DNA of 64,000 bases from Candidatus Parcubacteria bacterium (GCA_025999335.1 AP024681.1:615610-679609), one strand, 5' to 3'. Numbered from the stretch's first letter, positions 8,522 through 63,826 are shown. Program-made: numbers and translations. Notes: a model not told the origin generated them from the letters alone.

Positions 8522-9589
8522 TTAAATTAGAATTCTAGTTTCCCTAAAATTACTAATTTTTATTATATACCTTCCAGACTCAATTTTTTTTCTTAAGGCA
8601 AATTGTTTGATAACCAATGTTAAGACAGCAGCTCGTAAAAATGAAACTTCGCTAAGCTGAGGAATGCCACGAATCATCTTTTTAGATAAAAGCATAAATG
8701 ATTTATTTAATCTACTACTTAAAAATTTTGACCCTATAAAATTTCTTATTAATAAAATTTTCTCTTTTTCTGTTAAATTTAATTTATCAAGATTTAAAAT
8801 TTTGTTTCGAGTTTCATCGTTTAGGAATCCATTTAAAATTTTTAATCTGGGATTTAAATCATATCGTTCAATATCTAAAATAACATCAGATTCATTACCT
8901 GTTGCCATAATTACCGGAATTCGGTATTTTTTAGCTAATTCCCTTATTTTAATTTTTAAAACGAGATTATCAATTTCTTCTACTAGAATATCTACTTTAG
9001 GTTTTACTAAAAATTCTACTAAATTCTTTTCGCTGATTCCTTCTGGGTAAGGAATAACTTCACAAAATGGATTTATATCATAAATATGCCTCAGGCAAAG
9101 TATAGTTTTATTTTCTCCGACATCTAAGAATTTTAATCCAGCTGCCAACCTATTAAGATTGGATAATTCGAAAGTATCATTATCAGCTATTTTGAACTTA
9201 GTAAAACCTTGAAAAGCCAAAGCCATAGCAAGAGGATTGCCTACGTTTAAACCAACGATGCCTATTCTAAAATTTTTAATGTTTTTTTGTTCTGATTTCG
9301 TAATCAGCCCTAAATTGCGTGATGTTTTAATTAGATAAAAATAAGGCTCAGATAAAGAATGAACTAATTTTTGATGCCAAGGATAGTAAATCCAAACGTC
9401 ATCAATTCTTTTTATACTTTGCTTTGGCGAACATTTATTCAATTCTTGTAGGAGGAGGTCATATTTATCAACAATTTCAACGCCCATTTTCTTAAGTTCC
9501 TTAAAAATTTTCTTATCTTTTTCTCGTGTCAAATTTAAAATAAGGGGTTTATTTATATTTGTTTTGATCATTAATAATTTTTTCTTCAA
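8522..9589 (-). CDS. ThiF/MoeB/E1-like adenylyltransferase-family protein with an N-terminal extension
   Basis: Rossmann 'RIGIVGLNVGNPLAMALAFQGFTKFKIADNDTFELSNLNRL' (compare ThiF 'GxGxxG...D.D.V..SNLNRQ'); overlaps the upstream gene by 41 nt. Confidence 0.5.
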   Translation of the reverse strand: MKKKLLMIKTNINKPLILNLTREKDKKIFKELKKMGVEIVDKYDLLLQELNKCSPKQSIKRIDDVWIYYPWHQKLVHSLSEPYFYLIKTSRNLGLITKSEQKNIKNFRIGIVGLNVGNPLAMALAFQGFTKFKIADNDTFELSNLNRLAAGLKFLDVGENKTILCLRHIYDINPFCEVIPYPEGISEKNLVEFLVKPKVDILVEEIDNLVLKIKIRELAKKYRIPVIMATGNESDVILDIERYDLNPRLKILNGFLNDETRNKILNLDKLNLTEKEKILLIRNFIGSKFLSSRLNKSFMLLSKKMIRGIPQLSEVSFLRAAVLTLVIKQFALRKKIESGRYIIKISNFRETRILI

Positions 9590-10595
9590 CGCTATGACGA
9601 GGAGTGAATTTTTCTTCTATATCCATATAACCAAAACAGAAATGAAACTGAGGAAGCCAGTCGGTTTCAAATATTTCAGCTACTTCTTTAGCTAACCCCA
9701 TTTCTATAGCTGAAACAAAAATAGACGATTCTAAATTATTAGCTGCTAAAAACACCATTATTCTCTCGGCTAATTGACCAACTTTACACCAAATCAGAGG
9801 TGAATTTTCTTTGGAACTAATAAGACAAGAAACTGGCGCAGACTTAACGCTTAAATAATTTAATTTACCTAATTTTTTGCCTAAATCTAGATACTTGATC
9901 ATAAAAGGAAAAACAAAAGATAGCAAAAGGGGCATTTTTAAAGCATATCCCGGGATGCCTTCTTTTTTTCGTGATAAACTATTATTAATCCAACGAGACA
10001 TCTCTTGTCTGAAATTTTTATTGCGATAGGCAATTTCTAAACCTTTAGCAATTAATTCCGCCATTTTTTCAATTTTTGTTTTTTCAGTTAGAAGATTTAT
10101 CTCTAGAGACTCATCTTGGTTAAGAGTTTTGATTTTATTCAAAAGTTCTGACGGCACATTATCCGGTTTAAACATTCCTCGAGCATTTAATCTTTTTTTA
10201 ATTCCTAAGAGCCATTCTTTAAGCTCTTCGTTCGGGATTGGTTTTTTGTCGAGATCTTTAAAATAAACCCGCGCTATCAAGTTATTCTCAAAAATATATT
10301 CTGTTTTTTCATAAACATTAAAATATTTACTGGCTAAAATTAAGTTTTCTAAGGCGCAACCGATACTAATATATAAATCGCGGTTTAGAGGATCAGCATA
10401 AGGAAGCGCAAGATTATTATTTTTATAGATTTCACAGAAAGAAGGACTGATTTTAAATAACCAAGGTTGAGAATTATGAGTTGAAGGCGCAATTACAGCA
10501 TAGTTCAGTAAAAATTTAATCTTTTCGTCAAAATTTCTAAACTTATAAAAATCTTCTTCGTTAATTGTCCTTAGATCTTTCATTTTATTGCCCAT
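9549..10595 (-). CDS. Nitroreductase-family protein (long form, 348 aa)
   Basis: 'APSTHNSQPW' FMN-nitroreductase signature near the N-terminus; not the SagB 'PSAGxxYP' type. Confidence 0.55.
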   Translation of the reverse strand: MGNKMKDLRTINEEDFYKFRNFDEKIKFLLNYAVIAPSTHNSQPWLFKISPSFCEIYKNNNLALPYADPLNRDLYISIGCALENLILASKYFNVYEKTEYIFENNLIARVYFKDLDKKPIPNEELKEWLLGIKKRLNARGMFKPDNVPSELLNKIKTLNQDESLEINLLTEKTKIEKMAELIAKGLEIAYRNKNFRQEMSRWINNSLSRKKEGIPGYALKMPLLLSFVFPFMIKYLDLGKKLGKLNYLSVKSAPVSCLISSKENSPLIWCKVGQLAERIMVFLAANNLESSIFVSAIEMGLAKEVAEIFETDWLPQFHFCFGYMDIEEKFTPRHSVEEKIINDQNKYK

Positions 10596-12112
10596 TTTTG
10601 TTTAATTCCTGGTTTAAAATATTGGGGATATTCATAATGATGTAAAAATATTTTAGGCTCTAATTGCTTTTTATATATTGATGTTGCATTATAATAAAGG
10701 TGGTAATACTCTGCAGAATAGGTTGATAGAAAATTGATAATTGCTTTTTTAGCAAGATTCTCTATTTGATTGCTGGGCTTGATATTTTTTTTAAGTTCTA
10801 TATGGACATATAATTTTTGGTTCATATTTTTGTCATAAACAACTTGCATTGAGAATTTACCCGTAAAGTATTTTTGTAACTCTTTGTTTAATAATGCCCT
10901 TTTTATATATTCAGGATATAAATTAATACCTACTAAACTTACAGCAAAATCAGATCTTTCATAAACATAAACGAAGGGAAGCTTTAAAATTTTGTCTTTT
11001 ATTTTAAATTTTTCTGCTTCTTTAAATATATCAACACCTACCTCTTTTAGTCTTTTAATCATTTCATCAAAGTAAATAACTTCACCTCGATCAGGAAAAC
11101 TATATCTTATAAGAGGTATTGAGTCTCCGTAGCCAGATGCTAAAATTAAACCATCTTTTTCTTCAAACCAAACAATATAAGGATGGTATTGGGCTAGGGT
11201 AGGAGTTCTATTAGCTTCACGAAATACATTTTTAAAAACTTTATCTTTTTCTATAGCGATATGCCTTATAAGATTAGAAAGAGCTGTTTCATGAGCCATA
11301 GCATGTAATTCTATGCTGCCATAAATATTGACATTATCATTAAACATATTTTTAAGATGAAAAATTTTAGCAAAATATACTCTGAGTTCTTCAGGGAATC
11401 CCTCAGCGGCATTAATTATTCTAAATTGTTTTACTTGTTTTAAGTGATTTTTAAACTCATTTAATTCATCCGCGATATCTTTAATAAATGGCGGATAGCC
11501 TATCAATATAACTTGATCAAAATATTTGTAGAATTTGAGAAAGGATTTTATAAACGCTTCTTTATTAACGCCTACAGGAATAATTGTTATTTTATAATTT
11601 TTTTGAGATAAAAATTCAAAAGTTTTATAATTAATAATACCTCCGATCCATATTCCTAAACCAAAACCTATAATAACTAGCGAACTTTTTTTATCTATTT
11701 CGAATTGGTTTTTTAAAATTAATTCGAGAGTATATATATGCTGCAAGTCGTGTTGTTGATTTCTAGGGAAGTAAAATGGTTCTCCAGTAGAACCTGAAGT
11801 AGCTGAAATTGTTGTTGAAGAAATGATGTTTTTATTTGGAAATAAATCAAGATAGTTATATTTTCTTAAGTAGTTTTCTTTGTTCATAATGGGAAGTTTT
11901 TCGAGATCTTTCGAGCCATTTATATCTTTATAATTTATACCGTTATCAAGTAAAAATTTTCTATAAGCAGGCACATGGTTTATTGTAAATTTGATTAAGG
12001 TATTTAAGTTTTCCTTTCCTAGTTTTACCCAATAATCAGGATTTTTTGTTTTAAGATCTCTTAACCGTTCATTTATGTTAGTTGGGTAAGAGAAATAATT
12101 AAAGTCTTTCAT
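10580..12112 (-). CDS. Adenylate-forming enzyme, phenylacetate-CoA ligase / coenzyme F390 synthetase-like (PaaK/CapK family)
   Basis: AMP-binding P-loop-like 'SATSGSTGEPFYFPR' and overall size; 16-nt overlap with the downstream gene suggests an operon. Confidence 0.5.
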   Translation of the reverse strand: MKDFNYFSYPTNINERLRDLKTKNPDYWVKLGKENLNTLIKFTINHVPAYRKFLLDNGINYKDINGSKDLEKLPIMNKENYLRKYNYLDLFPNKNIISSTTISATSGSTGEPFYFPRNQQHDLQHIYTLELILKNQFEIDKKSSLVIIGFGLGIWIGGIINYKTFEFLSQKNYKITIIPVGVNKEAFIKSFLKFYKYFDQVILIGYPPFIKDIADELNEFKNHLKQVKQFRIINAAEGFPEELRVYFAKIFHLKNMFNDNVNIYGSIELHAMAHETALSNLIRHIAIEKDKVFKNVFREANRTPTLAQYHPYIVWFEEKDGLILASGYGDSIPLIRYSFPDRGEVIYFDEMIKRLKEVGVDIFKEAEKFKIKDKILKLPFVYVYERSDFAVSLVGINLYPEYIKRALLNKELQKYFTGKFSMQVVYDKNMNQKLYVHIELKKNIKPSNQIENLAKKAIINFLSTYSAEYYHLYYNATSIYKKQLEPKIFLHHYEYPQYFKPGIKQKWAIK

Positions 12113-38199: not shown

Positions 38200-38829
38200 A
38201 TGATCGGATATAAACTGCTAAAGTTATTCAGCATTGTTTTTGTTTTAGTGCCTATTGTTATTATTTTTGCTCATTGTCCGTTGTGTACTGCTGGAGCTGG
38301 AATAGGCGCTTTAATTGCTAAAGAATTAGGAATGAAATCTTCGGCGATTGGGGTTTGGATGGGCGCTTTTAGTGTGGCTTTGGGATGGTGGTTGGGAAAT
38401 GTGGTTATGAAGCGTGCCGCGCGTTTCATCCCCAGAAGCCACCCGTCTGCTGAACAGGCAGGCATAGCCCTCGGCTCGGCATTCGCCGATCGTCTCCGCC
38501 GGAATGAACCGCGTTGGCACGCTTTTCTATTAGTTTCATTAATATTACTATCTTTTCTATCGATTATCTTGCCTCTAAAGCTTTATTTTTATGAAATTGG
38601 ATCTTTTTCAATTTTTTGGTTTGGAGATTATGGAAGTTTGTTTAATCGTACTTATGTTTATGATCAATTTTTACTGGGTTCAATTATTGGAGGATTGATG
38701 ATTATAATTTCAACTTTTATTAGCAAAAAAATCATTCAATTACGTCAAAATAAAATTTTTCCTTATCAAGGTCTTATAATTACTTTTATTTTATTGATAA
38801 TTATTACTATTTTCTTTCAATTTAAATAA
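38200..38829 (+). CDS. Hypothetical membrane protein containing a GC-rich in-frame insertion
   Basis: TM helices; 'HCPLCTAGAG' near the N-terminus. Confidence 0.4.
   Translation: MIGYKLLKLFSIVFVLVPIVIIFAHCPLCTAGAGIGALIAKELGMKSSAIGVWMGAFSVALGWWLGNVVMKRAARFIPRSHPSAEQAGIALGSAFADRLRRNEPRWHAFLLVSLILLSFLSIILPLKLYFYEIGSFSIFWFGDYGSLFNRTYVYDQFLLGSIIGGLMIIISTFISKKIIQLRQNKIFPYQGLIITFILLIIITIFFQFK
38409..38524. repeat. About 115-nt GC-rich (roughly 60% GC) segment with imperfect terminal inverted repeats, inserted in-frame
   Basis: gaaGCGTGCCGCGCG...CGCGTTGGCACGC termini; GC content roughly double the surroundings; encodes KRAARFIPRSHPSAEQAGIALGSAFADRLRRNEPRWHA. Confidence 0.4.
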
Positions 38830-41143: not shown

Positions 41144-41250
41144 GTCGCGAACTAATACAAACTGTACGCGAACCACTGCGAACTATATCAGTATTGTGGT
41201 ATCAAAAAGTTCGCAACAGTTCGCGAGAAGGTTCGCAAGGGTTCGCGATT
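41144..41250. repeat. GTTCGCR repeat element (promoter-proximal copy)
   Basis: tcGCGAACtaatacaaactgtacGCGAACcactGCGAACtatat...aaaaaGTTCGCAacaGTTCGCGagaagGTTCGCAaggGTTCGCGat: GCGAAC units followed by GTTCGC units, forming a large imperfect inverted repeat; 35 nt are near-identical to 42596-42631. Confidence 0.5.
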
Positions 41251-41263
41251 TGCAAATCCAAAA

Positions 41264-43474
41264 ATGAAAAAATATATTTGTCCAATGGGATGCCTTGAGC
41301 CTCAAGATCAGCCCGGAAATTGTCCTGTTTGTGGAATGAAGCTTGTTGAAGTTGAGGAAAAATATCACAAAAAACACAAAGAAAAACACGAAGAACATTT
41401 AGATAAACATCAAGGCCATCGAACTGAAGATTTTCTCAAAAAATTTTGGTTATCTTTGATTTTAACTATTCCGATAGTTCTTTATTCTGATATTTTTCAA
41501 AAAATTAGTAACATAAAATTACCTTCTTTTGAGGGAATTCAATATTTGCCTTTTGGGCAGACAGGTTTAATTATGCTTCTTGGTTCTATTGTCTTTTTTT
41601 ATGGTGGTTTTGTTTTTCTTGTTGGTGCTTATCGAGAAATAAAAGCAAAGAATCCGGGAATGATGACTTTGATTGCTTTAGCGGTAGTATCTGCTTATGT
41701 TTATAGTGTTTTTGCTGTTTTATTCAAAATTGGACATGAATTTTTCTGGGAATTAGCAACCTTAATTACGATTATGCTTTTGGGACATTATTTTGAAATG
41801 AAATCAGTTTCTTCAGCGCAACGAGCTTTACAGGAGATTGAAAAGTTATTGCCTGATATCGCGGAATTAGAAGACGGAAGAAAAGTGAAATTAGATGAAT
41901 TAAAGTTAAATGATATTGTAATTGTTCGGCCCGGAGGAAAGATTCCTGCTGATGGTATTGTTATTGAGGGAAAATCTGAAGTTAATGAAAGTATGATAAC
42001 TGGAGAAAGTAAACCGGTTTTAAAAGAAATTGGTTCAGAAGTCATTGCTGGAACAATTAATGGTGATGGAGTTTTAAAAGTCAAAGTAACAAAAATTGGC
42101 GAAGAGACATTTTTGGCAGGAATTAAAAGATTAATTAAAGAAGCGCAAGCATCAAAATCAAAACTTCAAGTTTTAGCTGATGTTTTTGCGAAATATTTGA
42201 CTTTTATTGCTATAGGTATAGGTTCTTTGAGTTTTATTATTTGGCTTTTGTTACAAAAAAATCTTGCTTTTGCCCTTGAAAGATTGGTAACAGTTTTGAT
42301 TGTTGCTTGTCCTCATGCTTTAGGTTTAGCAGTTCCCTTAGTTGTGGCAATTTCAACATCTTTAGCAATTCATAACGGCTTTTTAATTAGAAACAGATTA
42401 CAACTTGAGCTGGCAAGAAAAATAGATGTTGTTTTATTTGATAAAACTGGGACCTTAACTTCTGGAAGATTTAAGGTAAGAGAAATTATAACGCGAACCG
42501 ATGCGAACAACGATGACAACCGCGAACTTATGCGAACAGATAATGACAAAGTTCGCGAGAGTTCGCAAGAGTTTGCGTCTGAAAACAATGTTCGCAATAG
42601 TTCGCGAGAAGGTTCGCAAGAGTTTGCGATATTACAATTAGCAGCCTCCTTAAATCAATACTCCCAACATTTTATTGCTCAAGGGATTTTAGAAAAAGCA
42701 AAAGAGCAGGGAATTAAACTTTTAAAAGTTGAGGAATTTGAAAATCTAACTGGTAGAGGAGTTAAAGGAAAAATTAATGGAAAAACTTATTATCTTGGCG
42801 GTAATAATTTGTTAAAGGAACTGGGTTACCCGAATGAAAACCGAATAAATTACCCGAATGAAAATCAAATTGGAACAACGGTCTATCTTATTGATGAAAA
42901 TAAAAATCTTTTAGGAGCAATTGTGTTGGAAGATGAAATCCAGGAAGAATCTTTTGAAGCTGTTAAGAATTTACATCAAATGGGAATTAAAGTAGCAATG
43001 ATAACCGGTGATAAAAAAGAAGTTGCTGAAAAAGTTGCCAAGGAGTTAGGAATTGATGAGTATTTTGCTGAAGTTTTACCAGAAGATAAAGTTAATAAAG
43101 TTAAAGAACTTCAAAAAAGAAATTTAAAAGTAATGATGGTTGGCGATGGAATTAATGACGCTCCGGCATTGATGCAAGCTGATGTTGGTGTGGCAATTGG
43201 GGCAGGTACAAATGTGGCTATTGAATCAGCGGGAATAATTTTAGTCAGAAATGATCCAAGAGATATTGTTAAATTAATTGAGCTTTCAAGAAAAACTTAT
43301 CGCAAAATGATTGAAAACCTCTTTTGGGCAACTGGCTATAATATTGTTGCTTTACCACTCGCAGCTGGGATTTTAGCTTTTAAAGGAATCTTTCTTTCCC
43401 CAGCTTTAGCTGCAATCTTTATGTCTCTTTCAACAGTAATTGTTGCTGTTAATGCGTTGGGGTTGAGAGGTTGA
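41264..43474 (+). CDS. copB: Copper-translocating P1B-type ATPase (CPH motif, His-rich N-terminus; CopB-like)
   Basis: 'CPMGC...CPVCGM' N-terminal metal site; His-rich 'KYHKKHKEKHEEHLDKHQGH'; TM 'ACPHALGLA'; 'DKTGTLT', 'GDGINDAPAL', 'MITGD'. Confidence 0.9.
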   Translation: MKKYICPMGCLEPQDQPGNCPVCGMKLVEVEEKYHKKHKEKHEEHLDKHQGHRTEDFLKKFWLSLILTIPIVLYSDIFQKISNIKLPSFEGIQYLPFGQTGLIMLLGSIVFFYGGFVFLVGAYREIKAKNPGMMTLIALAVVSAYVYSVFAVLFKIGHEFFWELATLITIMLLGHYFEMKSVSSAQRALQEIEKLLPDIAELEDGRKVKLDELKLNDIVIVRPGGKIPADGIVIEGKSEVNESMITGESKPVLKEIGSEVIAGTINGDGVLKVKVTKIGEETFLAGIKRLIKEAQASKSKLQVLADVFAKYLTFIAIGIGSLSFIIWLLLQKNLAFALERLVTVLIVACPHALGLAVPLVVAISTSLAIHNGFLIRNRLQLELARKIDVVLFDKTGTLTSGRFKVREIITRTDANNDDNRELMRTDNDKVRESSQEFASENNVRNSSREGSQEFAILQLAASLNQYSQHFIAQGILEKAKEQGIKLLKVEEFENLTGRGVKGKINGKTYYLGGNNLLKELGYPNENRINYPNENQIGTTVYLIDENKNLLGAIVLEDEIQEESFEAVKNLHQMGIKVAMITGDKKEVAEKVAKELGIDEYFAEVLPEDKVNKVKELQKRNLKVMMVGDGINDAPALMQADVGVAIGAGTNVAIESAGIILVRNDPRDIVKLIELSRKTYRKMIENLFWATGYNIVALPLAAGILAFKGIFLSPALAAIFMSLSTVIVAVNALGLRG
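42491..42631. repeat. GTTCGCR repeat element inserted in-frame (about 47 codons) in the ATPase N-domain just after DKTGTLT
   Basis: acGCGAACcgatGCGAACaacgatgacaacCGCGAACttatGCGAACag...aaaGTTCGCGagaGTTCGCAagagtttgcg...atGTTCGCAataGTTCGCGagaagGTTCGCAagagtttgcgat; encodes RTDANNDDNRELMRTDNDKVRESSQEFASENNVRNSSREGSQEFA. Confidence 0.5.
43386..43468. repeat. Left direct repeat (attL-like): the in-gene 3' end of the ATPase
   Basis: 57/57 identity (43412-43468 vs 47615-47671) plus about 25 nt at roughly 80% identity upstream. Confidence 0.55.
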
Positions 43475-43484
43475 TTTAACAAAC

Positions 43485-43514
43485 TTGACAAGGTTTGTTT
43501 TTGTTGTGTATAAT
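43485..43514 (+). promoter_or_regulatory. Near-consensus sigma70-type promoter upstream of the precursor peptide gene
   Basis: TTGACA (43485-43490), 18-nt spacer, TATAAT (43509-43514); about 80 nt upstream of the precursor ATG. Confidence 0.45.
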
Positions 43515-43592
43515 GTATTACAGCTAAATTAGAAAGTTGTTTGAATTCTAAGTAAATTATATTAAAGGTCGCTATTAAATAAAATTAAATAA

Positions 43593-43772
43593 ATGAGGAA
43601 AATAATATTAAAAAATAATGATAAAAAAAGAATTGCTAGTATCTATTCGAGAGAACCAGAGTATACGCAAATAAGAAAGGTGAATTTGGTAGCTGGTCCA
43701 TGTGACAATTCTAGCAATGGATGTACAGGTAGTTGCAATCATTCATCGGGTGCCATTCAACAACTCAAATAA
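43593..43772 (+). CDS. TOMM/LAP-type RiPP precursor peptide (59 aa), not in the ORF track
   Basis: MRKIILKNNDKKRIASIYSREPEYTQIRKVNLVAGPCDNSSNGCTGSCNHSSGAIQQLK. Charged leader plus a Cys/Ser/Thr/Gly-rich C-terminal core (GPCDNSSNGCTGSCNHSSG), 53 nt upstream of the YcaO gene. Confidence 0.6.
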   Translation: MRKIILKNNDKKRIASIYSREPEYTQIRKVNLVAGPCDNSSNGCTGSCNHSSGAIQQLK

Positions 43773-43824
43773 CGAATATACAAGTTACTTGCAATTACTT
43801 TTTAAAATAATTATATTTGTATAA

Positions 43825-45096
43825 ATGTTAATTAAGGAAAGAAGGCTAGAGGGAATATCAAAAATTAAAATATATAAAAATACTAGATGGTATGATTTAC
43901 CATTCATATGGCAATATGCGGCTTTTTTTTCTAATTTTAAAAAAAACAATATCTTTGGAGTAGGATCTTCATTGATTTCTCGAAAAATAGCTATTACTCG
44001 AGCTTTTTATGAGTTGCTAGAAAGATTTTCGCTTAGCTACCCTTCTCTTAATAAATTTTTAAGGCTCAGTTTTTCTGAAATAGACGAAGATAGAACAATA
44101 CCGTACAATGTTTGGTTCAAGAAAAATGATGTTGAAAAAAACCAAAAAATAAATCCAAAATTAATTAAAAATATACCTTCTTTAGATGATAAATTATACT
44201 TTGCGTGGGGTTACAATTTAATTAATAGAGAAAAAGTTTTAATTCCTGCACAGTTAATCTATGTTCCTCCAAAAAGATTTATCGAAAAAATAATTCGTGA
44301 GTCAAATAGTACCGGGGCTGCTGCTGGTAAAAATTTAAAACAATGTTTGATTAAAGGTATTTTAGAAATTTTAGAAAGAGATGCGTTTATAAATTATTAT
44401 TTAAACGAATTTTTTGGTGAAAGGATAGATCTTAGCAGATTTAAAAATATTAAATGCTTTATTAATAAATTTAGAAAATACCATTTAGAAATATATTCTT
44501 TTTATCTACCTTCCGATATAGAAATTTTTAATGTGGTGACTTTCTTAATAGATAAATCAGGCATGAGTCCAATTATAAATTGTGGTTCTGCCTCAGGGTT
44601 TGAGATCGAAAATTGTATTTTAAAAAGCCTTGAAGAATCTCTTCAGGTTTTAATGTGGATAAGATTACTTTCTTTAACTAAAAGAATTAGTACTATAGAT
44701 CTTAACACTCTTGAGAACAGGGGATTTTTTTGGATGGATAATAAAAAATTGAAATTAATATATCAATGGGTAAATAAATCAAGAAAACCAAAACAACTTA
44801 ATTCTTTAATTAAAAAGCTTAAAAATAACAAAAATAACCGTTTAAATTATCTTATTGAGCAAATTAAAAATCATAATTATAATATATATTATTCTGAAAT
44901 TACTTCTGAAAAATTCAAAAAATTAAAAGTAAAAGTAATTAAAGTGATAATTCCTCAATTGCAATGGATATATTTAGGCGAAGATTTTAAATTTATTAAT
45001 TGGGAACGAATTAAAAAGATCAGAGAAATTAACAATCTTAAACCTTTTGATGTAGATGCTAACAAATTAAATAAAGTGCCACATTTTTTTTTATAA
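43825..45096 (+). CDS. YcaO-domain cyclodehydratase (TOMM 'D' protein)
   Basis: 'GVGSSLISRKIAITRAFYELLERFSL' and 'SNSTGAAAGKNLKQCLIKGILEILERDA' are YcaO ATP-binding signatures; C-terminal '...VPHFFL'. Confidence 0.8.
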   Translation: MLIKERRLEGISKIKIYKNTRWYDLPFIWQYAAFFSNFKKNNIFGVGSSLISRKIAITRAFYELLERFSLSYPSLNKFLRLSFSEIDEDRTIPYNVWFKKNDVEKNQKINPKLIKNIPSLDDKLYFAWGYNLINREKVLIPAQLIYVPPKRFIEKIIRESNSTGAAAGKNLKQCLIKGILEILERDAFINYYLNEFFGERIDLSRFKNIKCFINKFRKYHLEIYSFYLPSDIEIFNVVTFLIDKSGMSPIINCGSASGFEIENCILKSLEESLQVLMWIRLLSLTKRISTIDLNTLENRGFFWMDNKKLKLIYQWVNKSRKPKQLNSLIKKLKNNKNNRLNYLIEQIKNHNYNIYYSEITSEKFKKLKVKVIKVIIPQLQWIYLGEDFKFINWERIKKIREINNLKPFDVDANKLNKVPHFFL

Positions 45097-45113
45097 CTAT
45101 TTATAACATCTAA

Positions 45114-45893
45114 ATGAAAGAGAAATTAAGTTATGTAATATTAAAAAAATTAGCTTCAAATTATGAAAATGTCAACAATTTTGAATTTTTAAAATACTTT
45201 AAAAAATCCTCTATAGATAAATTCCATAAAACTATCAAAAATTATCCCGAAAGCTGGAAAAAAATTAATTTTAAAACATACGCAAGGTTCTCCAATGTTT
45301 TGCTTAATAAAAATTTTGGAAAGGATGAGCTTTTAAAAATTATTTTTAAAAGAAGAAGTGAGAGAAATTTTCAAAAATATCCTTTAAGTTTGAAAGAAAT
45401 TTCTTATTTTCTCCTAGGAGCAACAATTACCAAGGTTTTTGATAATAATTTCGATTATAACTCATTTAGAGCTTATCCTTCGGCTGGAGCCCGTTACTCT
45501 CTTGAGGTATATTTATTTTTATTATCATCAAAAGATCTAAAAAGGGGCTTGTATCATTATAATGTAAGATTTCATTGTTTAGAGTATATGTGGGATTTTA
45601 AGAAAAAAGATTTAATAAAAATTTTTAATCAAAAATTTATTCTAAATAGTAGTTTAATAATTTTTATTACTTGTGTTATTAAAAGAATTTATCCTAAATA
45701 TGGTGAAAGAAGCTTGAGATTGGCTCTATTAGAGGCAGGACATTTAGCTCAAAATTTTTTACTGTTAGCTACAAAATTAGGGCTGAAATCTTGTCCAGTG
45801 GGTGGTTTTAAAGAACAAAAAATTTTAGAAATTTTAGATATATCTCAGGAAGAACAAGAATTGCCCCTTTATTGTATAATAATAGGAAAATGA
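45114..45893 (+). CDS. SagB-type (McbC-like) FMN-dependent dehydrogenase (TOMM 'B' protein)
   Basis: 'FKRRSERNF', 'YPSAGARYSLEVYLF', 'LLEAGHLAQNF', 'CPVGGF'. Confidence 0.8.
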   Translation: MKEKLSYVILKKLASNYENVNNFEFLKYFKKSSIDKFHKTIKNYPESWKKINFKTYARFSNVLLNKNFGKDELLKIIFKRRSERNFQKYPLSLKEISYFLLGATITKVFDNNFDYNSFRAYPSAGARYSLEVYLFLLSSKDLKRGLYHYNVRFHCLEYMWDFKKKDLIKIFNQKFILNSSLIIFITCVIKRIYPKYGERSLRLALLEAGHLAQNFLLLATKLGLKSCPVGGFKEQKILEILDISQEEQELPLYCIIIGK

Positions 45894-47539
45894 CATTAGA
45901 AATGATTTTATCTAAAGAAAAAGGACCGTTGAGAGAACATATTTTTTGTGATATTAAGTTTTTGAGAATCGGCACTAAAGAACTAATTACAGAGAGCAAA
46001 CTTATTGTTCGTTCAAATGAAAAGGTAGCTTTAATTGGAAGAAATGGAAGTGGGAAATCAACTTTAATTAGATTGATAATTAGTTTTTATGAAAAAAGAG
46101 ATGTTTCCGAAGATTTAGAATTTTCTGGTAAGATTTTTATTTCCCCTGAAATTAAGATAGCTTATCTACCTCAAGAAATTAAACTACAATTTTCTGGTAC
46201 TGTTGAAGAATATTTAGAATGGAGAGGTGGTGAATTTGTAAAACTAGTTAAAAGATATAAAGAGTTTTCCGAAAAAGGAGAATTTTCTTTAGAAGAAGCA
46301 GAAGAATATTCACGAATAATTGAAAGAATGACTCAATTTAATTTATGGGATTATGAAGGAAAAAGAGATAGAATTTTAAAAAAATTAAATATTAGATCAG
46401 AAATTCTAAATAGAGATGTCCAGGAGATATCTGGTGGTGAAGCTACAAAAATAACTTTAGCTGGAATTCTACTTTCTGATGCTAATTTCTGGATTCTTGA
46501 TGAGCCAACTAACAATTTAGATAAGGATTCTATAGATATCCTTTTTGAAGAAATGAGAAGGTTTAGGGGAGGAATTTTATGTATTACTCACGATAGAAGA
46601 CTTTTAAATATTTCTTCAAGAATTTTTGAGATAGATGAAGAAACTAAAACTTTAAAAGTTTGGGGAGGTAATTATGAATTTTATAAAAAAGAAAAGGAAA
46701 AAGAATTTTTGGGGAGGATGAAAAAATTTGAGGAACAAGAAAGAAAAAGGAAAAAATTAGAAAAAGCTATTGAGGAGTTAAAGAAAAAATCTCAAGAATT
46801 TGAAAAAATTGGCCGTGATGCTTTTTACAGAGCAAAAGGATCTAAAATAGCTAAACAAGCTAAGGTTCAAGAAGAGAGAATTTTAAGAGAACTTTCTCAG
46901 CTTACCGAACCTCAGCCTCCAGAAAGGCCAGAGTTTCCTAAGTCACAACCAGAAGTTTTAAAAGGAAATGTGCTTTCAATTAAAGGCTTATCTTATTCTT
47001 TTAATGATAAGATTTCAATTAATATTCCTTATTTAATTCTAGAAGCCGGGGAAAGGCTTTTAATAGAAGGACCAAACGGTTCTGGTAAAACAACTTTGAT
47101 TAGACTCATTCTTGGTGAAATAAAACCATCAGAAGGAAAAGTAACTCTTAAAGAAAGTATTATAATTGGATATTTACCTCAATCACCTAAAATCGAAAAT
47201 ATCAGCCAAAAAGTTTATCAATTTCTAAAAACTGAACATAATATTAATGAAGGGGAGACTAAAGCTATTCTTAATAGAATGAAAATACCACATGTTTTCA
47301 ATTTGACTTTAAAAGATCTAAGCATTGGCGAAATAAGAAGATTACAACTTGCTGCTATTTTATTTAAAAATCCAGACCTTTTAATTTTGGATGAGCCAAC
47401 TAATCATCTTGATATTTATACCATTGAAGAACTTGAAGTGGCGTTGAAAGATTATAAGGGAACAATAATTTTTGTTTCTCATGATAAATATTTTATAAAC
47501 ACTTTAAAACCAACCCAAAAAATAGTTTTAAAAAGATAA
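45872..47539 (+). CDS. ABC-F family ATPase (two ABC domains, no TM, charged interdomain linker); candidate self-immunity/ribosome-protection protein
   Basis: Walker A 'GRNGSGKST' and 'GPNGSGKTT'; signature 'SGGE'/'SIGE'; 'ILDEPTNNLD'/'ILDEPTNHLD'; KE-rich linker at about 270-320; 22-nt overlap with the SagB-like gene. Confidence 0.7.
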   Translation: MYNNRKMTLEMILSKEKGPLREHIFCDIKFLRIGTKELITESKLIVRSNEKVALIGRNGSGKSTLIRLIISFYEKRDVSEDLEFSGKIFISPEIKIAYLPQEIKLQFSGTVEEYLEWRGGEFVKLVKRYKEFSEKGEFSLEEAEEYSRIIERMTQFNLWDYEGKRDRILKKLNIRSEILNRDVQEISGGEATKITLAGILLSDANFWILDEPTNNLDKDSIDILFEEMRRFRGGILCITHDRRLLNISSRIFEIDEETKTLKVWGGNYEFYKKEKEKEFLGRMKKFEEQERKRKKLEKAIEELKKKSQEFEKIGRDAFYRAKGSKIAKQAKVQEERILRELSQLTEPQPPERPEFPKSQPEVLKGNVLSIKGLSYSFNDKISINIPYLILEAGERLLIEGPNGSGKTTLIRLILGEIKPSEGKVTLKESIIIGYLPQSPKIENISQKVYQFLKTEHNINEGETKAILNRMKIPHVFNLTLKDLSIGEIRRLQLAAILFKNPDLLILDEPTNHLDIYTIEELEVALKDYKGTIIFVSHDKYFINTLKPTQKIVLKR

Positions 47540-47588
47540 ATCTTTGGTTAAATATTTATTCAATGTTCATATTTTTAGTATTCAAAAT

Positions 47589-47671
47589 CATCTTTTTTCT
47601 CCCCAACTTCAGCAGCAATCTTTATGTCTCTTTCAACAGTAATTGTTGCTGTTAATGCGTTGGGGTTGAGA
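47589..47671. repeat. Right direct repeat (attR-like): duplicated ATPase 3' end with its own stop codon
   Basis: Identical 57-mer; ends '...GLR-stop' and is followed directly by a hairpin terminator. Confidence 0.55.
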
Positions 47672-47675
47672 TAAA

Positions 47676-47700
47676 AACCGCAAGTTTGCGGGGATTTTAT
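47676..47700 (+). terminator. Rho-independent terminator
   Basis: CCGCAA-gt-TTGCGG followed by GGATTTTATTTATATTTTT. Confidence 0.5.
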
Positions 47701-47784
47701 TTATATTTTTAATCTTTAAAATACTATTCATGATTTTATTAATTTTCTTGAGATTATTTTATAATAAATAAAAAGTAAAATAAT

Positions 47785-48399
47785 ATGTATAACATCCTTA
47801 TTTTTGGTGATAGTATAGCAGCGGGTAGAAAAATAAATAAAATAAAGTCGTGGCCATCTCTTTTAGCTCAATTTCTTGATAAGAAAGATAAAGATTTTAC
47901 GCTCGTTCATAATTTAAGTATTCCCGGAGATTCAAGTAATGATGTTTTAAAAAGATTCTCCGTAGAAGCTGAGGCAAGATGTAAAAAAATTTATCCTGAT
48001 GATCGTTGTTCGATTATTTTTACTATAGGTATAAATGATACAAAATGTATTAATTCTGTAAACAATCCTGTTACAAATGAAAAAACCTTTCTAAAGAATA
48101 TAATTTCGCTTATTGAAAGGGCACAAAAATACACTAACCATATTATTTTTGTTGGCTTAACTCCAGTTGATGAAAGTAAAACAATTTCTTTAGATGGTGT
48201 TTATTTTTTTAATGAAAAAATAAAAGCATATGAAAAAATAATCCAAGATGAATGTAAAAAAAGAAAAATTGTGTTTTTAGATATTGTTAATGAGTGGTTA
48301 AAATCCAATTATTTGAGATTTCTTTCAAATGACGGAATCCATCCTAATGAGAAGGGGCATCAAAAAATTTTCAAAAAAGTGAAGATATTATTTAAATAA
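47785..48399 (+). CDS. SGNH/GDSL-family hydrolase
   Basis: 'ILIFGDSIAAG' (block I Ser), 'GINDT', C-terminal 'DGIHPNEKGHQ' (Asp-His). Confidence 0.7.
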   Translation: MYNILIFGDSIAAGRKINKIKSWPSLLAQFLDKKDKDFTLVHNLSIPGDSSNDVLKRFSVEAEARCKKIYPDDRCSIIFTIGINDTKCINSVNNPVTNEKTFLKNIISLIERAQKYTNHIIFVGLTPVDESKTISLDGVYFFNEKIKAYEKIIQDECKKRKIVFLDIVNEWLKSNYLRFLSNDGIHPNEKGHQKIFKKVKILFK

Positions 48400-48404
48400 A
48401 ATTA

Positions 48405-48926
48405 ATGTTTATTCAAATATTAAATATTTTCAAAAGACCCGTTTATTTAATTTCTTGGATATTTTTGACTTTCATTTTTGTTACTTTTTTCATAATAGTT
48501 CAAATTTATTTTACGCCTGATTATCGAGCCAATCCTGAACTTATATTTTTAGTTTTAAAACCAAAAGATTATTTTCTTTTGACTACTTTTGCTTTTTTAA
48601 TTGCTTTAAATTTTGTTTTGTCTGTTTACACTTTTAGATTGACAAATAAAATATTTGATTCCAGTAAATCTTTAATTCAAAACATACCAGCAGTTTTTTC
48701 TTCGTTATTTACTGGCATTATTGCAACTGCTTTTTGTACTTCTTGTTTAGTTTCAGTTTTAAGTTTTTTAGGAACATCTACTGCTTTTGGTTTAACTCTT
48801 TTTTCTTTAAAATACAAAAGCTGGATAATTTTAGGAAATTTCATATTTTTAATCCTGTTAACTTTTTATAATTTGAAAAATATCAGTAAAATTGTGAATA
48901 AAAACGAAAAAGAGTGTAATTGCTAA
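48405..48926 (+). CDS. Hypothetical multi-pass membrane protein
   Basis: ORF; TM helices. Confidence 0.3.
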   Translation: MFIQILNIFKRPVYLISWIFLTFIFVTFFIIVQIYFTPDYRANPELIFLVLKPKDYFLLTTFAFLIALNFVLSVYTFRLTNKIFDSSKSLIQNIPAVFSSLFTGIIATAFCTSCLVSVLSFLGTSTAFGLTLFSLKYKSWIILGNFIFLILLTFYNLKNISKIVNKNEKECNC

Positions 48927-56053: not shown

Positions 56054-57457
56054 TTAAAGCTTTTGAGTAATTTTAATAATATTCATATTTTTTCTATCAT
56101 AAACATAATAAATTACATATTTACTATCTGAAGAAAATGCTAAATAAGGTAATATGTAAGGTAATATGTATTCAAATTTTTCTCCTTCTATACCATCAAC
56201 AACAATAAAATTCTGACTATCTTTGCTACTTACTATATAAGCAAAATGCTTGCCATTAGGAGAAAAAGAAAAAAATTTTATATCTTCTGCATCCGGCTCT
56301 TTTTTTTCTTGACCGTCAATTACTATAAAAGAATTATTATCTTTGTAAGCTATATAAGCAAAATGTTTGCTATCTTTAGAAAAATATAAATTCGATATAG
56401 AATCATATTTTGTTTGTTCTTTGTTATTAAGTACTACAAATGCTTTTTTATTTTGAACAGCTACATAAGCAAAATGCTTGCTGTCAGGAGAGAAAGTTAA
56501 AGAAGATACAAGATCATATTTTTTACCTTCTTTACCGTCAAAAATAACGAAATTTTTATTGTCTTTATTGGCAACATAGGCAAAATGTTTACCATTGGGA
56601 GAAAAAATCAATTTATAAATAATAGAATCAGTTTTTTCTTTATTATCTGATATTACGATTTCTTGATTATCTAAAACAAGATAATATTTTTTACATTTTG
56701 CCGTACCTGGATAATGGTTATCGTTTAAACAATTTTGACCTTTTATATAAGCAAAATGTTTACTATCAGGAGAAAAAGTTAAAGAAGATATAAAATCATA
56801 TTTTTTACCTTCTTTACCGTCAACGACAATAAATTGTTTACCATCTTTAGTGGCTATATAAGCAAAATGCTTGCTGTCAGGAGAGAAAGTTAAAGAATAT
56901 ACAAGATCATATTTTTTACCTTCTTTACCGTCAAGAACTACTGCTGCTGTATTGTTTACAAACACTGCATAAGCAAGACGTTTGCTATTAGGAGAAAATA
57001 TTATTGGATACACATGTTCATACTTATATTTTTTTATTTCTTTATTATCTAAAACAACAAAGCGACTACCAAACTCTTCTGCTACATAAGCAAAATGCTT
57101 ACTGTCAGGAGAGAAAGTTATTGTATAAAAAAGTATGTAGTCATATTCTTTCCCTTTTTTATAATCATCTAAAATTATAAAATACTTATTTGTGTTTGTT
57201 TTTACAATAATAGCCGAACGTTTAGAATTATCAGCAATTCGTAGATATGTAGGATACAAATCATTAAAATTAAGCTTATATATTATTTCTTTTGTGATTT
57301 TTTGATTAAGATCATCTGTTTTTTGTTTAGTTAAATTTATTAATTGTTCACTATTATTAGATGTTGAAAATTGTTGCGCCGATGTCGGATTATAATTACG
57401 AGTAAAGATAAACAATAATAAGAAAATTAAAAACAATATTCTTTTATGCTTATACAT
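56054..57457 (-). CDS. Secreted tandem-repeat (beta-propeller-like, PD40/TolB-like) protein
   Basis: Signal peptide; about nine repeats of 'TFSPDSKHFAYIA.KDGK.FIVVDGKEGKKYD'; the repeats are also near-identical at the DNA level. Confidence 0.5.
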   Translation of the reverse strand: MYKHKRILFLIFLLLFIFTRNYNPTSAQQFSTSNNSEQLINLTKQKTDDLNQKITKEIIYKLNFNDLYPTYLRIADNSKRSAIIVKTNTNKYFIILDDYKKGKEYDYILFYTITFSPDSKHFAYVAEEFGSRFVVLDNKEIKKYKYEHVYPIIFSPNSKRLAYAVFVNNTAAVVLDGKEGKKYDLVYSLTFSPDSKHFAYIATKDGKQFIVVDGKEGKKYDFISSLTFSPDSKHFAYIKGQNCLNDNHYPGTAKCKKYYLVLDNQEIVISDNKEKTDSIIYKLIFSPNGKHFAYVANKDNKNFVIFDGKEGKKYDLVSSLTFSPDSKHFAYVAVQNKKAFVVLNNKEQTKYDSISNLYFSKDSKHFAYIAYKDNNSFIVIDGQEKKEPDAEDIKFFSFSPNGKHFAYIVSSKDSQNFIVVDGIEGEKFEYILPYILPYLAFSSDSKYVIYYVYDRKNMNIIKITQKL

Positions 57458-61548: not shown

Positions 61549-61602
61549 AAAATATTTAAAAACAACATTCCAACATTCTTAAGAATGTTGGAATGTTAGC
61601 TT
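61549..61602. repeat. 54-bp repeat containing a perfect 17-bp-arm palindrome (copy 1)
   Basis: aaaatatttaaaaacAACATTCCAACATTCTTAAGAATGTTGGAATGTTagctt. Confidence 0.5.
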
Positions 61603-61767: not shown

Positions 61768-62346
61768 ATGAAAAACGAAATTGAAGCAACATTTCTTTCG
61801 GTTAATAAAGATTCAGTACGAACTAAACTTAAGAAAGCTGGATTTGAACTAAAAACTCCTGAATATTTAATGCGGAGAAAAACTTTTGATTTCTCCCGTG
61901 TTGCGCCAGGCCAAAACAAATGGGGACGTGTTCGTCAGGAGGCAGATATGGTAACGATGACTATAAAGGAAATTCGTGGATCGGGAATTAACGACACTTA
62001 TGAAATTGAACTAATAGTTAACGACTTTGATACTGCCTGTGATTTTTTTGAAGCATGTGGCATTCCTGCGAAAGCGTTTCAAGAAAATATGCGCGAGGTA
62101 TGGACACGTAATGGCGTTGAAGTAACGATTGACACATGGCCTGGGCTAAATCCGTTTGTTGAGATTGAAGGTGAAAACGAAAAGGTTGTTCGGGACATAT
62201 CTAAAGAGCTTGGTTTTGATTTTGAAAAGGCTGTTTTTGGAAGTATTGATCTAATATACGAAAAAGAGCTTGGTATTCCTGCCGAAATAATTATTCGTTT
62301 ACCAGAAATTACCTTTGCTAATCCGCCAAAGAAAAAGGACATGTAA
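61768..62346 (+). CDS. CYTH-like domain protein (class IV adenylyl cyclase/triphosphatase fold), tentative
   Basis: N-terminal 'EIEATFLSV' (EIE.KF motif); GC content visibly higher than its neighbours. Confidence 0.45.
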   Translation: MKNEIEATFLSVNKDSVRTKLKKAGFELKTPEYLMRRKTFDFSRVAPGQNKWGRVRQEADMVTMTIKEIRGSGINDTYEIELIVNDFDTACDFFEACGIPAKAFQENMREVWTRNGVEVTIDTWPGLNPFVEIEGENEKVVRDISKELGFDFEKAVFGSIDLIYEKELGIPAEIIIRLPEITFANPPKKKDM

Positions 62347-62564: not shown

Positions 62565-63611
62565 ATGAAGTTTAAATTTAAGATTTCCCAAACAGGAAAT
62601 TTTTATTTTTTTATTTGGAATCTTAGCGAGTGGCATTTTTCCTGTAGGCCCGAAGTAAATTACTATTGGAAAACTTTTTCGCCAACCAAATCTTTTAAAG
62701 AAGAACTTTTATTGGAAAAATATTTAAAAAAATCAGCGAATATTTTTAAAAAATACGAAAAAGAGAAAGGCGAAGTTGTTTTTCCAGTTCTCGCTAAAGC
62801 TTTAAAGGCTAAAAGCAAAAAAGATATTTTGAATGAACTTAAAGGAAGAGACAGAATTTTTATGGAAAAAGTTTTTAAGGTTTTTGAGACAATGTTTTCT
62901 TTTTATTGGCAGGAATCAAAGCCAAGATTAAAAAAATTTATTCAGCTTTTTGCAAATCCTAAAGTAGAAAAATTAATTGGCAAAGCCCTAAAAATACTTG
63001 AAATTTATTTTGGCAAGATAGATTCTAAAGAAATTACTGTTTATCTTTTAATGATACCTCAGCATTTTATGGGCGGAGGTGGCGCTAATGTTGGAAGAAA
63101 TAAAATAACCGTGGAAATTGGCAATATTTCTCCTAAAGGATTTCGATGGTCTTTAATTACCATCTTACACGAAATTGCCCATGTTTGCTTTCAATATCAT
63201 CAAAGTTATTTCGATAATTTGCTAAAAGAATTTTTAAAATCTTTAAATAAACAAGAAATTAAAGAAATTAATATTGATAAAATATTTGATAACGATTTAA
63301 TAACTATTTTTAGAGAAGGTATTACTTCTTCAATAATTTCTGATGGTATCATTGATGATATTCTTTTTAAAACCAATACAAGAAAAAAATTGGAATTTCA
63401 GTTAAAAAATATTGATTTTATTAAAACTTATCCTGAAGGTTATTTTAGAAAATTTATGAGTTACTATCTTTATCCTTTAAACAAAAAATATCTTCGCCAA
63501 AAAAGAAAAATTGATAAAAATTATTTAAAAGAATCTTTAAAATTAATTAAAAAATTTAATAAGATATATAAAAAATTTAACGGTTATATAAGATTATACA
63601 ATTTCAATTAA
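62565..63611 (+). CDS. Hypothetical protein with an HExxH motif ('LHEIAHVCF')
   Basis: ORF; possible zinc-metallopeptidase-like motif. Confidence 0.35.
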   Translation: MKFKFKISQTGNFYFFIWNLSEWHFSCRPEVNYYWKTFSPTKSFKEELLLEKYLKKSANIFKKYEKEKGEVVFPVLAKALKAKSKKDILNELKGRDRIFMEKVFKVFETMFSFYWQESKPRLKKFIQLFANPKVEKLIGKALKILEIYFGKIDSKEITVYLLMIPQHFMGGGGANVGRNKITVEIGNISPKGFRWSLITILHEIAHVCFQYHQSYFDNLLKEFLKSLNKQEIKEINIDKIFDNDLITIFREGITSSIISDGIIDDILFKTNTRKKLEFQLKNIDFIKTYPEGYFRKFMSYYLYPLNKKYLRQKRKIDKNYLKESLKLIKKFNKIYKKFNGYIRLYNFN

Positions 63612-63772: not shown

Positions 63773-63826
63773 AAAATATTTAAAAACAACATTCCAATAT
63801 TCTTAAGAATGTTGGAATGTTAGCTT
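63773..63826. repeat. 54-bp palindrome-containing repeat (copy 2; 53/54 identical to copy 1)
   Basis: aaaatatttaaaaacAACATTCCAATATTCTTAAGAATGTTGGAATGTTagctt; the single C-to-T change keeps a G-U pair if transcribed from the + strand. Confidence 0.5.

Follow-up and report, generated by a model that had tools for sequence, protein, structure and literature searches.

Integrase-encoding islands and integrative mobilizable elements insert in the 3' end of tRNA, tmRNA and protein genes and restore the end of the gene that they enter. The cis-mobilizable elements (CIMEs) of Streptococcus thermophilus are flanked by attachment (att) sites and lack an integrase; their att sites are those of a known family of integrative and conjugative elements, and the cognate integrase is found in related elements. 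The minimal mobile elements of Neisseria are alternative gene cassettes between conserved flanking genes that are swapped by transformation. Clusters for thiazole/oxazole-modified microcins (TOMMs), for example that of microcin B17, form a further point of reference, as do the ABC-F immunity genes (NCBIfam NF000171-type) found in producers of ribosome-targeting antibiotics. Patescibacteria, or the candidate phyla radiation (CPR), have tiny genomes with few recognizable mobile elements and few natural-product clusters, and their gene exchange is poorly known. Here we describe a 4.1-kb TOMM-type cassette at the 3' end of the copper ATPase gene copA in a stretch of 64,000 nucleotides from a hot-spring genome, Candidatus Parcubacteria bacterium (GCA_025999335.1 AP024681.1:615610-679609), hereafter the window, which by its protein names belongs to the metagenome-assembled genome (MAG) KatS3mg097 of the KatS3mg series.

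The cassette lies directly behind an intact copA, and the last part of this gene is repeated on the far side of the cassette. The same order, namely a complete gene, an insert, a 3' fragment of the same gene in direct orientation and then native downstream DNA, is present at another gene, rtcB, in two further genomes (L049 and L050). We propose that the locus arose by an old homology-driven insertion-duplication, either Campbell-type integration or homology-facilitated illegitimate recombination, of a mobile cassette without an integrase, and assign this reading a probability of about 0.5. Homology-facilitated illegitimate recombination and transformation-linked duplication formation are established processes that have been documented in transformable bacteria (PMC3240628, PMC3784515).

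The repeated copA end and its counterpart at rtcB

The first-pass annotation of the window, made from its sequence alone, had described a repeated ATPase gene end with an identical 57-mer. This description is accurate: the two copies form a 78-nt direct repeat (43391-43468 and 47594-47671) that is identical at 73 of 78 positions and includes an exact 57-mer (43412-43468 and 47615-47671), which occurs only twice in the window against 0 expected occurrences (100 shuffles). With a 1-nt indel, the adjoining leftward segments (43370-43390 and 47572-47592) match at 14 of 21 positions. This count was made by hand in the correct register, and random 21-mers reach at least 14 matches at a rate of approximately 0.001 per register; an unanchored local alignment of this leftmost 21-nt part of the copies was not significant. 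The homology thus probably extends some 21 nt beyond the 78-nt repeat, for a whole repeat of 99/100 nt with approximately 88% identity. From left to right the identity of copy 2 to copy 1 climbs from 14/21 (67%) through 16/21 (76%) to 57/57 (100%).

Copy 1 reads to the end of the ATPase as GLRG-TGA. Copy 2 reads GLR-TAA, with the TAA at 47672-47674; its 57-mer runs into TAAAAACC and then a terminator hairpin, CCGCAAGTTTGCGG (47678-47691), with a T-rich tail, as had been annotated. A stop codon in the ATPase frame (TAG at 47576-47578) precedes copy 2, which has non-conservative changes, reading FFSPTSAA in place of the conserved FLSPALAA. Given the in-frame stop and the altered conserved residues, copy 2 is a non-coding relic. 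In relatives it can be aligned with the 3' end of the ATPase gene (in L007, for instance, at 83% over 105 nt), and both copies in the window have in common substitutions that are absent from the ATPase of every relative. A scan of a genome collection yielded 41 copA loci, with further loci obtained through exact-protein look-ups; a second ATPase C-terminal fragment was found in none of the 40 relatives' copA loci and is present in the window only.

The repeat is polymorphic among strains. In the read set SRR27730017 (strain V), the islet-side copy (L145) is identical to the window over the 55 nt covered and reads through the end of the 57-mer into the cassette without a branch, with 1 single-nucleotide polymorphism (SNP) and 1 indel relative to the window in 2.6 kb. 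The terminator-side copy (L143) carries three SNPs, at 47647, 47654 and 47663, and thereafter matches the window without a difference for 158 nt. Of the variant states two are unique, and one of these alters a conserved Asn; the third is the ancestral Arg codon where the functional gene encodes Gly. The perfect identity of the 57-mer in the window is therefore not a mark of recency. The simplest reading of these variants is that the copies had diverged and that copy 2 of the window was probably converted recently by copy 1. On this evidence the copA fragment is also an active recombination end-point.

Beyond the terminator region, L143 diverges from the window by approximately 5% across the SGNH hydrolase gene and orf48405, and by less further on. 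Compared with L143 and L144 (SRR27730017/32) over 47822-48800, the window differs by approximately 5% in these two genes and by approximately 1% or less further to the right; there are no differences over 47664-47821. The divergent patch looks like a localized recombination import beside the repeat.

The window topology is found a second time, independently and at a different gene. The genomes L049 and L050 are 91% identical to each other. In both, a homologous cassette (42%, 54% and 53% amino acid identity to the window for YcaO, SagB and ABC-F, respectively) directly follows rtcB and is bracketed by a perfect 51-nt direct repeat, which corresponds to the last 51 nt of rtcB including its stop codon. 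The second 51-mer begins at the last base of the ABC-F stop codon, and beyond it lies the native convergent gene, which encodes a P-type ATPase. The four copies of the 51-mer are all identical, though the insertion predates the 9% divergence between the two genomes. Uninterrupted identity over 51 nt or more is common in their alignment (16 of 415 runs), so this identity argues little for homogenization or constraint and we do not rely on it.

At both genes the repeat is homologous to the target gene itself, the copA fragment in one case and the rtcB end in the other, with no fixed element sequence. As the 57-mer and the 51-mer are unrelated, the factor common to the two loci is homology to the upstream gene. 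This topology of intact gene, insert, 3' fragment and terminator is the outcome when an insert carries a replacement 3' end along with it. The earlier suggestion of such an insertion into a gene 3' end stands as regards the topology and its replicate at rtcB; the event at the copA locus itself may have gone in either of the two directions considered below.

The cassette, its neighbors and its relatives

The 4.1-kb unit is a self-contained thiazole/oxazole-peptide cassette with its own promoter, a precursor, a YcaO protein, a SagB-type dehydrogenase, and an ABC-F and likely immunity gene (Table 1). All four genes lie between the repeats, in 43593-47539, as annotated. The hallmarks of a TOMM or linear azol(in)e cluster are present, namely YcaO, a SagB-type dehydrogenase and an adjacent precursor rich in Cys, Ser and Thr; the precursor itself has no Pfam or NCBIfam match. 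For YcaO the best NCBIfam model, TIGR03604 (SagD family), scores 159 bits, below its cut-off of 219. The ABC-F protein passes NF000355 (ribosomal protection-like ABC-F) with 389.8 bits against a cut-off of 380. Judged by this family membership, ABC-F probably confers self-immunity through ribosome protection, against a ribosome-targeting azole peptide. The -35 box of the promoter lies 10 nt past the ATPase stop codon; the ACTTGACAA promoter and a downstream AAAGGTCG leader motif are kept in most related cassettes. G+C content is uninformative as an island marker, since the islet (26%) and its flanks are alike in a genome of approximately 25%, and only the conserved ATPase is higher.

Table 1. 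Features of the copA locus, in positions of the window.
Feature	Position	Strand	Remarks
Copper-translocating P1B-type ATPase (CopA-like), target gene	41264..43474	+	Pfam E1-E2_ATPase, Hydrolase, HMBD; TIGR01511
Repeat copy 1	43370..43468	+	Last transmembrane helix of the ATPase; exact 57-mer at 43412-43468
GGT TGA, extra Gly codon and stop, outside the repeat	43469..43474	+	GGTTGATTT resembles the left ends of related cassettes
Cassette promoter	43485..43514	+	TTGACA, 18-nt spacer, TATAAT; 12/12 match to the sigma-70 consensus
Precursor peptide, 59 amino acids, Cys/Ser-rich	43593..43772	+	Core ...GPCDNSSNGCTGSCNHSSGAIQQLK
YcaO cyclodehydratase	43825..45096	+	PF02624, E = 2.8e-38
SagB-type flavin mononucleotide (FMN) dehydrogenase	45114..45893	+	PF00881; TIGR03605, 129.5 bits against a cut-off of 78.4
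ABC-F ATPase	45872..47539	+	ABC_tran x2 and ABC_tran_Xtn; linker, without membrane domain
Spacer	47540..47571	+	Between the ABC-F end and copy 2
Repeat copy 2, non-coding ATPase 3' fragment	47572..47671	+	Imperfect repeat including the 57-mer
TAA and intrinsic terminator	47672..47700	+	Stem 47678-47691 and T-tract; stretch identical in strain V contigs L143 and L144
SGNH/GDSL hydrolase	47785..48399	+	Pfam Lipase_GDSL_2; direct downstream neighbor of the ATPase in cassette-less lineage C
Membrane protein orf48405	48405..48926	+	Homologue directly after the cassette in lineage B and directly after the ATPase in L003

No E1-like (C-protein or Ocin-ThiF) partner or RiPP recognition element (RRE) for YcaO was found in the cassette genes. 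A ThiF gene lies 33 kb from the cassette, in a separate trio that encodes ThiF-like and nitroreductase-like proteins and a protein of approximately 500 amino acids with no Pfam match (8522-12112 on the minus strand of the window, 880-4541 in L049, and 7936-11676 in L138). This trio, conserved in several of these genomes, may represent a second peptide-modification system.

Relatives carry several arrangements of the interval between copA and cutA, which is occupied by the cassette, by SGNH, by orf48405, or by DUF192-HlyD-MacAB. In lineage B (L058, L043-46) the order is AhpC, ATPase, precursor, YcaO, SagB, ABC-F and an orf48405 homologue, with neither the repeat nor SGNH. The window is collinear with L058 except for 47540-48404, which comprises a possible relic (considered below), the ATPase fragment, the terminator and SGNH. 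At the nucleotide level lineage B is 77% identical to the window in the flanks, 82% in the ATPase, 75.6% in the cassette and 77% in orf48405. Three independent lineage B assemblies (L043, L044 and L045) all stop 40 nt past YcaO, where L058 and L046 read through; the common stop suggests strain variation or a repeat at the YcaO/SagB boundary. In L003, whose ATPase is 75% identical in amino acids, the ATPase stop codon is followed directly by the promoter and start of an orf48405 homologue, and this promoter is the same as that after ABC-F in lineage B.

Lineage C (L138, L139) has the order ATPase, 310 nt, SGNH, DUF192, HlyD, MacAB, CutA and EamA, and the cassette is absent; its ATPase 3' end is 91% and its SGNH gene 90% identical to the window in nucleotides. 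L007, with an ATPase 3' end that is also 91% identical, has this arrangement minus SGNH. In L031 the ATPase is followed by ABC-F only (75% amino acid identity), and the 280-nt spacer between the two holds no remnants of TOMM genes. With cassette-type and SGNH-type arrangements both present in relatives, the window looks composite, the two types overlapping in the last ~100 nt of copA. The annotation had predicted that an empty site would show the ATPase followed by the terminator and the SGNH gene. The gene order of lineage C would agree with this, but its ATPase-SGNH intergenic region is not recognizably homologous to the window terminator region, and we found no homology between it and the islet edge or the relic of the window.

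Two side observations concern these genes. SGNH homologues in L051-L055 (75-76% identity) are preceded by a 3' fragment of a helix-turn-helix (XRE-like) gene (9300-9565 in L051), which in L051-54 directly follows a tRNA gene, and the SGNH gene itself may travel with upstream gene fragments. A rule that cassette-bearing ATPases have one extra C-terminal residue was rejected, as the ATPase of cassette-less lineage C ends in LRLRS.

YcaO homologues of the cassette type are rare, with 24 in 5.8 billion proteins, and the cassette occurs in at least five contexts: copA, rtcB, L060, L062 and L064. The precursor core CTGSCNHSS recurs in L060 and L064 and has one change (CNGSCNHSS) in L062. L064 is a 5,023-bp contig with identical 123-nt ends that looks circular, and its cassette promoter is directly preceded by the truncated 3' part of an IS481-like transposase gene. 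In L062 a 65-mer resembling the end of an insertion sequence lies 27 nt past ABC-F. L064 (1-5146) and L065 (1-4356; 74-nt identical ends) contain YcaO and SagB, plus ABC-F in L064, but genes for replication or recombination are absent from both; each could be a circle, a tandem or a tiny plasmid. Long repeats around a distant YcaO in L069/L070 proved to be two whole duplicated genes, with no gene-end duplicate. Together these contexts support mobility of the cassette family over evolutionary time; it would move from one chromosomal site to another in Patescibacteria with no recombinase of its own.

The annotation had also called the cluster probably horizontally acquired cargo. The insertion footprint and the mobility of the cassette, seen in at least five contexts and in the 51-nt duplicate at rtcB, agree with this. 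A recent event is not supported, because lineage B has the same cassette at the same copA site, and there it is as diverged (75.6%) as the flanks (77-82%).

Several further observations were made on the ATPase gene and elsewhere in the window. The ATPase scores 596 bits against TIGR01511 (cut-off 397). GTTCGCRA-rich 44-nt repeats lie just upstream of its start (41206-41249) and in frame in its nucleotide-binding domain (42526-42630). Relatives have other in-frame repeat inserts (TQINAD-type) at the same ATPase positions (L007 10001-12694, L031 100-300 and L035 1240-1800), and the L007 ATPase is lengthened to 897 amino acids. In hot-spring Parcubacteria such repeats may be a kind of element that enters coding genes in frame. 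Short-read contigs seem to break at them, and an exact look-up of the window ATPase returned no record, probably because the in-frame repeats fragment the gene in short-read assemblies. A GC-rich patch (38271-38520, 38-40% against ~25%) lies within an open reading frame (ORF) with no Pfam match (38200-38829) in the copper-resistance gene block. Two copies of a 54-nt direct repeat, 98% identical and each with the 34-nt palindrome AACATTCCAACATTCTTAAGAATGTTGGAATGTT, lie at 61549-61602 and 63773-63826 and bracket two ORFs (61768-62346, 62565-63611); the pair marks either another bracketed gene block or a terminator that was reused. At 56232-57133 a minus-strand gene for a WD40/PD40-repeat protein contains eight copies of a 111-117-nt repeat, which are ordinary protein repeats.

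How the duplication may have formed

Under insertion-duplication, the cassette and the downstream block (copA fragment, terminator and SGNH) would have been joined by one homologous exchange in the conserved copA 3' end and one illegitimate joint. This could have taken place by Campbell-type single-crossover integration of a circle that carried a copA 3' fragment, or by homology-facilitated illegitimate recombination of linear DNA after uptake. The expected product is an intact copA, with its last codon and stop derived from the cassette side, then the cassette, a leftover copA 3' fragment and the original terminator. After this old event the left part of the fragment would have decayed, and its 57-nt core would have been re-homogenized against the functional gene by gene conversion. 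Since the repeats are direct, RecA-type recombination between them could cleanly remove the cassette and leave ATPase-terminator-SGNH, and the released circle might be able to re-enter any genome with a similar copA end. Such excision and re-entry would explain why the footprint recurs with the cassette. A circle with a gene 3' fragment and the cassette is what the model needs, and the circular-looking L064 may be such a molecule. Immunity, if conferred by ABC-F, could make loss of the cassette costly.

A number of points weigh against this proposal. Homology of 51-57 nt is short for RecA-dependent integration. The first capture of a 3' fragment of the target must have been a rare illegitimate event, and is needed at least twice. 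The lineage B cassette occupies the same copA site, and the repeat is absent there. The ATPase-SGNH intergenic region of lineage C has no recognizable homology to 47672-47784 of the window. No empty rtcB site was retrieved, and no circular or empty-site molecule was observed for the window genome, in graphs of k = 31, where an empty site together with a circle would look the same as an integrated cassette. Instead of an excised circle, L064 may represent a tandem array or a small plasmid. Lastly, the similar lengths of the repeats (57 and 51), the perfect 51-mers and a GGTTRAT-like end motif could point to an enzyme-driven mechanism.

The alternative that survives best reverses the direction of the event. 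The cassette would have been at copA since before lineage B split, and a 0.86-kb block of copA 3' fragment, terminator and SGNH would have entered later; we consider this possible, with a chance of roughly one in four. On this reading the source of the block would be an ATPase-SGNH relative, orf48405 would have been the anchor for homology-facilitated illegitimate recombination, and the repeat would be hitch-hiking DNA and no footprint of cassette insertion. The collinearity of the window with L058 outside 47540-48404 and the equal divergence of cassette and flanks are in keeping with this direction, as are the ATPase-SGNH adjacency in lineage C and the recombination hot patch across SGNH and orf48405, with its ~5% divergence against ~1% or less in neighboring DNA. 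A possible trace of the older junction lies to the left of the fragment: the orf48405 homologue of lineage B has a promoter and 5' start to which 47540-47588, overlapping the left end of copy 2, can be weakly aligned (score 19, with 11.4 +/- 2.2 under the null; p ~0.007 with natural AT-rich 54-mers, before correction for three targets). This segment may be a relic of the orf48405 promoter and start region, which we treat as a lead only and as weak evidence for the reversed order. Against that order, the topology recurs at rtcB, where no additional gene separates the fragment from the native DNA that follows, so that the cassette is the common denominator of the two loci, and the closest relatives by ATPase (L138 and L007, 91% in nucleotides) are without the cassette. 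These two observations favor entry of the cassette into an ATPase-SGNH genome.

Site-specific integration, the explanation put forward in the first-pass annotation, we regard as unlikely. The cassette would here be a decayed or trans-mobilized (CIME-like) element, the repeats its attL and attR, and the integrase would be encoded elsewhere. A target at a gene 3' end, with one direct repeat within that end and the other on the far side of the insert, is the classic signature of an island, and the same layout recurs at rtcB with a perfect 51-nt repeat that has sharp boundaries. The 57-mer and 51-mer are similar in length, all four 51-mers are identical in two 91% identical genomes, and L064 looks circular. 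There is also a possible terminal motif: GGTT(G/A)A(T/A)-like sequences occur at or near both cassette ends in the window (43469-43477, 47546-47553) and in L049 (9676-9684, 13801-13808), and at the cassette left ends of lineage B (L058) and L062. They could be due to chance, represent microhomology used in joining, or form a recognition site.

Set against this, the annotators had seen no integrase, and we found no integrase, resolvase or transposase by Pfam in the four islet genes and 61 further ORFs of the 64 kb (65 in all, comprising every ORF of at least 150 amino acids and several shorter ones). The IS481-like transposase of L062/L064 was found neither in the window nor at the other loci. 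The window contains no tRNA gene or Rfam element as an integration target, the cassette was not found on viral contigs, and among the loci covered, namely the 64 kb and fragments of relatives, none had a cognate element that encodes an integrase and has matching att sites. The 57-mer at copA and the 51-mer at rtcB do not have an att core in common, as they are alike only in the 7-mer AGTAATT, which is about what chance would give by a rough estimate. Imperfect ATPase homology continues for approximately 42 nt to the left of the identity block, as would be expected of a captured gene fragment more than of an att arm. In strain V one copy differs by three SNPs, the lineage B cassette stands at the same place without a repeat, and perfect runs as long as the 51-mer are common between L049 and L050. 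Considering the missing common core and recombinase, the assignment of the repeats as attL/attR of a site-specific integrase is not supported. Tandem duplication of the ATPase followed by deletion was rejected as well, there being no relative with two ATPases and the same short fragment being present at rtcB.

The annotation had asked for a check on misassembly. Logan unitigs from DRR290133 (L001, L056) and SRR27869038 (L146, L057) match the window with at most one mismatch and reproduce both inner junctions and the copy-2-to-terminator junction, the latter in two read sets. Each of them begins or ends at exactly k-1 = 30 nt within the 57-mer, the pattern of a true repeat, and in L001 the end of ABC-F is continuous with the diverged left portion of copy 2. 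PacBio HiFi reads with an N50 of 10.5 kb underlie the KatS3mg MAGs (PMC9671151; mg097 is not named in the main text), and such reads span the 4.2-kb interval. A collapsed repeat or a chimeric join of two strains can thus be dismissed as highly improbable: both arrangement types do circulate in related populations and short-read graphs do branch at the 57-mer, but copy 2 has its own diverged left part that is physically linked to the ABC-F end on an independent unitig, its junction to the terminator is found in two read sets, the source series derives from HiFi reads of approximately 10 kb, and analogous structures occur in unrelated assemblies.

Implications and comparison with known systems

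These findings suggest a candidate route of gene exchange in the CPR, in which compact cassettes are placed behind conserved genes by homology alone and the duplicated gene end permits clean excision. The footprint, an intact gene followed by a cassette and then by the last 50-100 nt of the same gene, could be searched for as a sign of integrase-free gene flow in uncultured bacteria. The locus also cautions that a perfect direct repeat need not imply a recent or integrase-mediated event. The conserved YcaO/SagB/ABC-F cassette is a candidate ribosome-targeting peptide system in Parcubacteria. More speculatively, and with doubt outweighing confidence, the family might be an undescribed mobile element of the CPR: a peptide-antibiotic-plus-immunity cassette without a recombinase, whose portable homology arm would be a 3' end taken from a conserved host gene and which would pass between a small circle and the chromosome by host recombination, probably after uptake, be retained by producer-immunity addiction and have its arm refreshed by gene conversion.

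Among the described systems, the cassette resembles integrase-encoding islands in that it sits at the very 3' end of a conserved gene, which it leaves intact, with a repeat on the far side and native DNA next. It differs from them in having no integrase, in repeats that are completely different at copA and rtcB, in imperfect homology that continues past the identity block, and in a cargo of four genes. Like CIMEs, it is flanked by direct repeats, has no recombination genes of its own and could potentially be mobilized in trans; unlike CIMEs, it has no partner element or shared core that we could find.

The parallel with minimal mobile elements lies in the copA-cutA interval, which holds differing gene sets in close relatives with no recombinase involved. 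Minimal mobile elements, however, are swapped through double crossover within the two flanks, and no gene end is left duplicated as it is in the window. As in TOMM clusters, there is a precursor with a core rich in Cys, Ser and Thr, a YcaO protein and a SagB-type dehydrogenase, and the ABC-F protein passes a ribosomal protection-like model. Unlike those clusters, the cassette lacks a separate E1-like or C-protein, a recognizable RRE partner and an exporter, and its host is a member of the Parcubacteria.

Campbell-type integration and homology-facilitated illegitimate recombination share with the window one homologous exchange plus one illegitimate joint, which yield an intact gene, foreign DNA and a partial duplicate with no dedicated recombinase. 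These processes are known mainly as laboratory or single-event outcomes, whereas here a natural cassette has the footprint at two genes, which suggests that they form a recurrent route of its spread.

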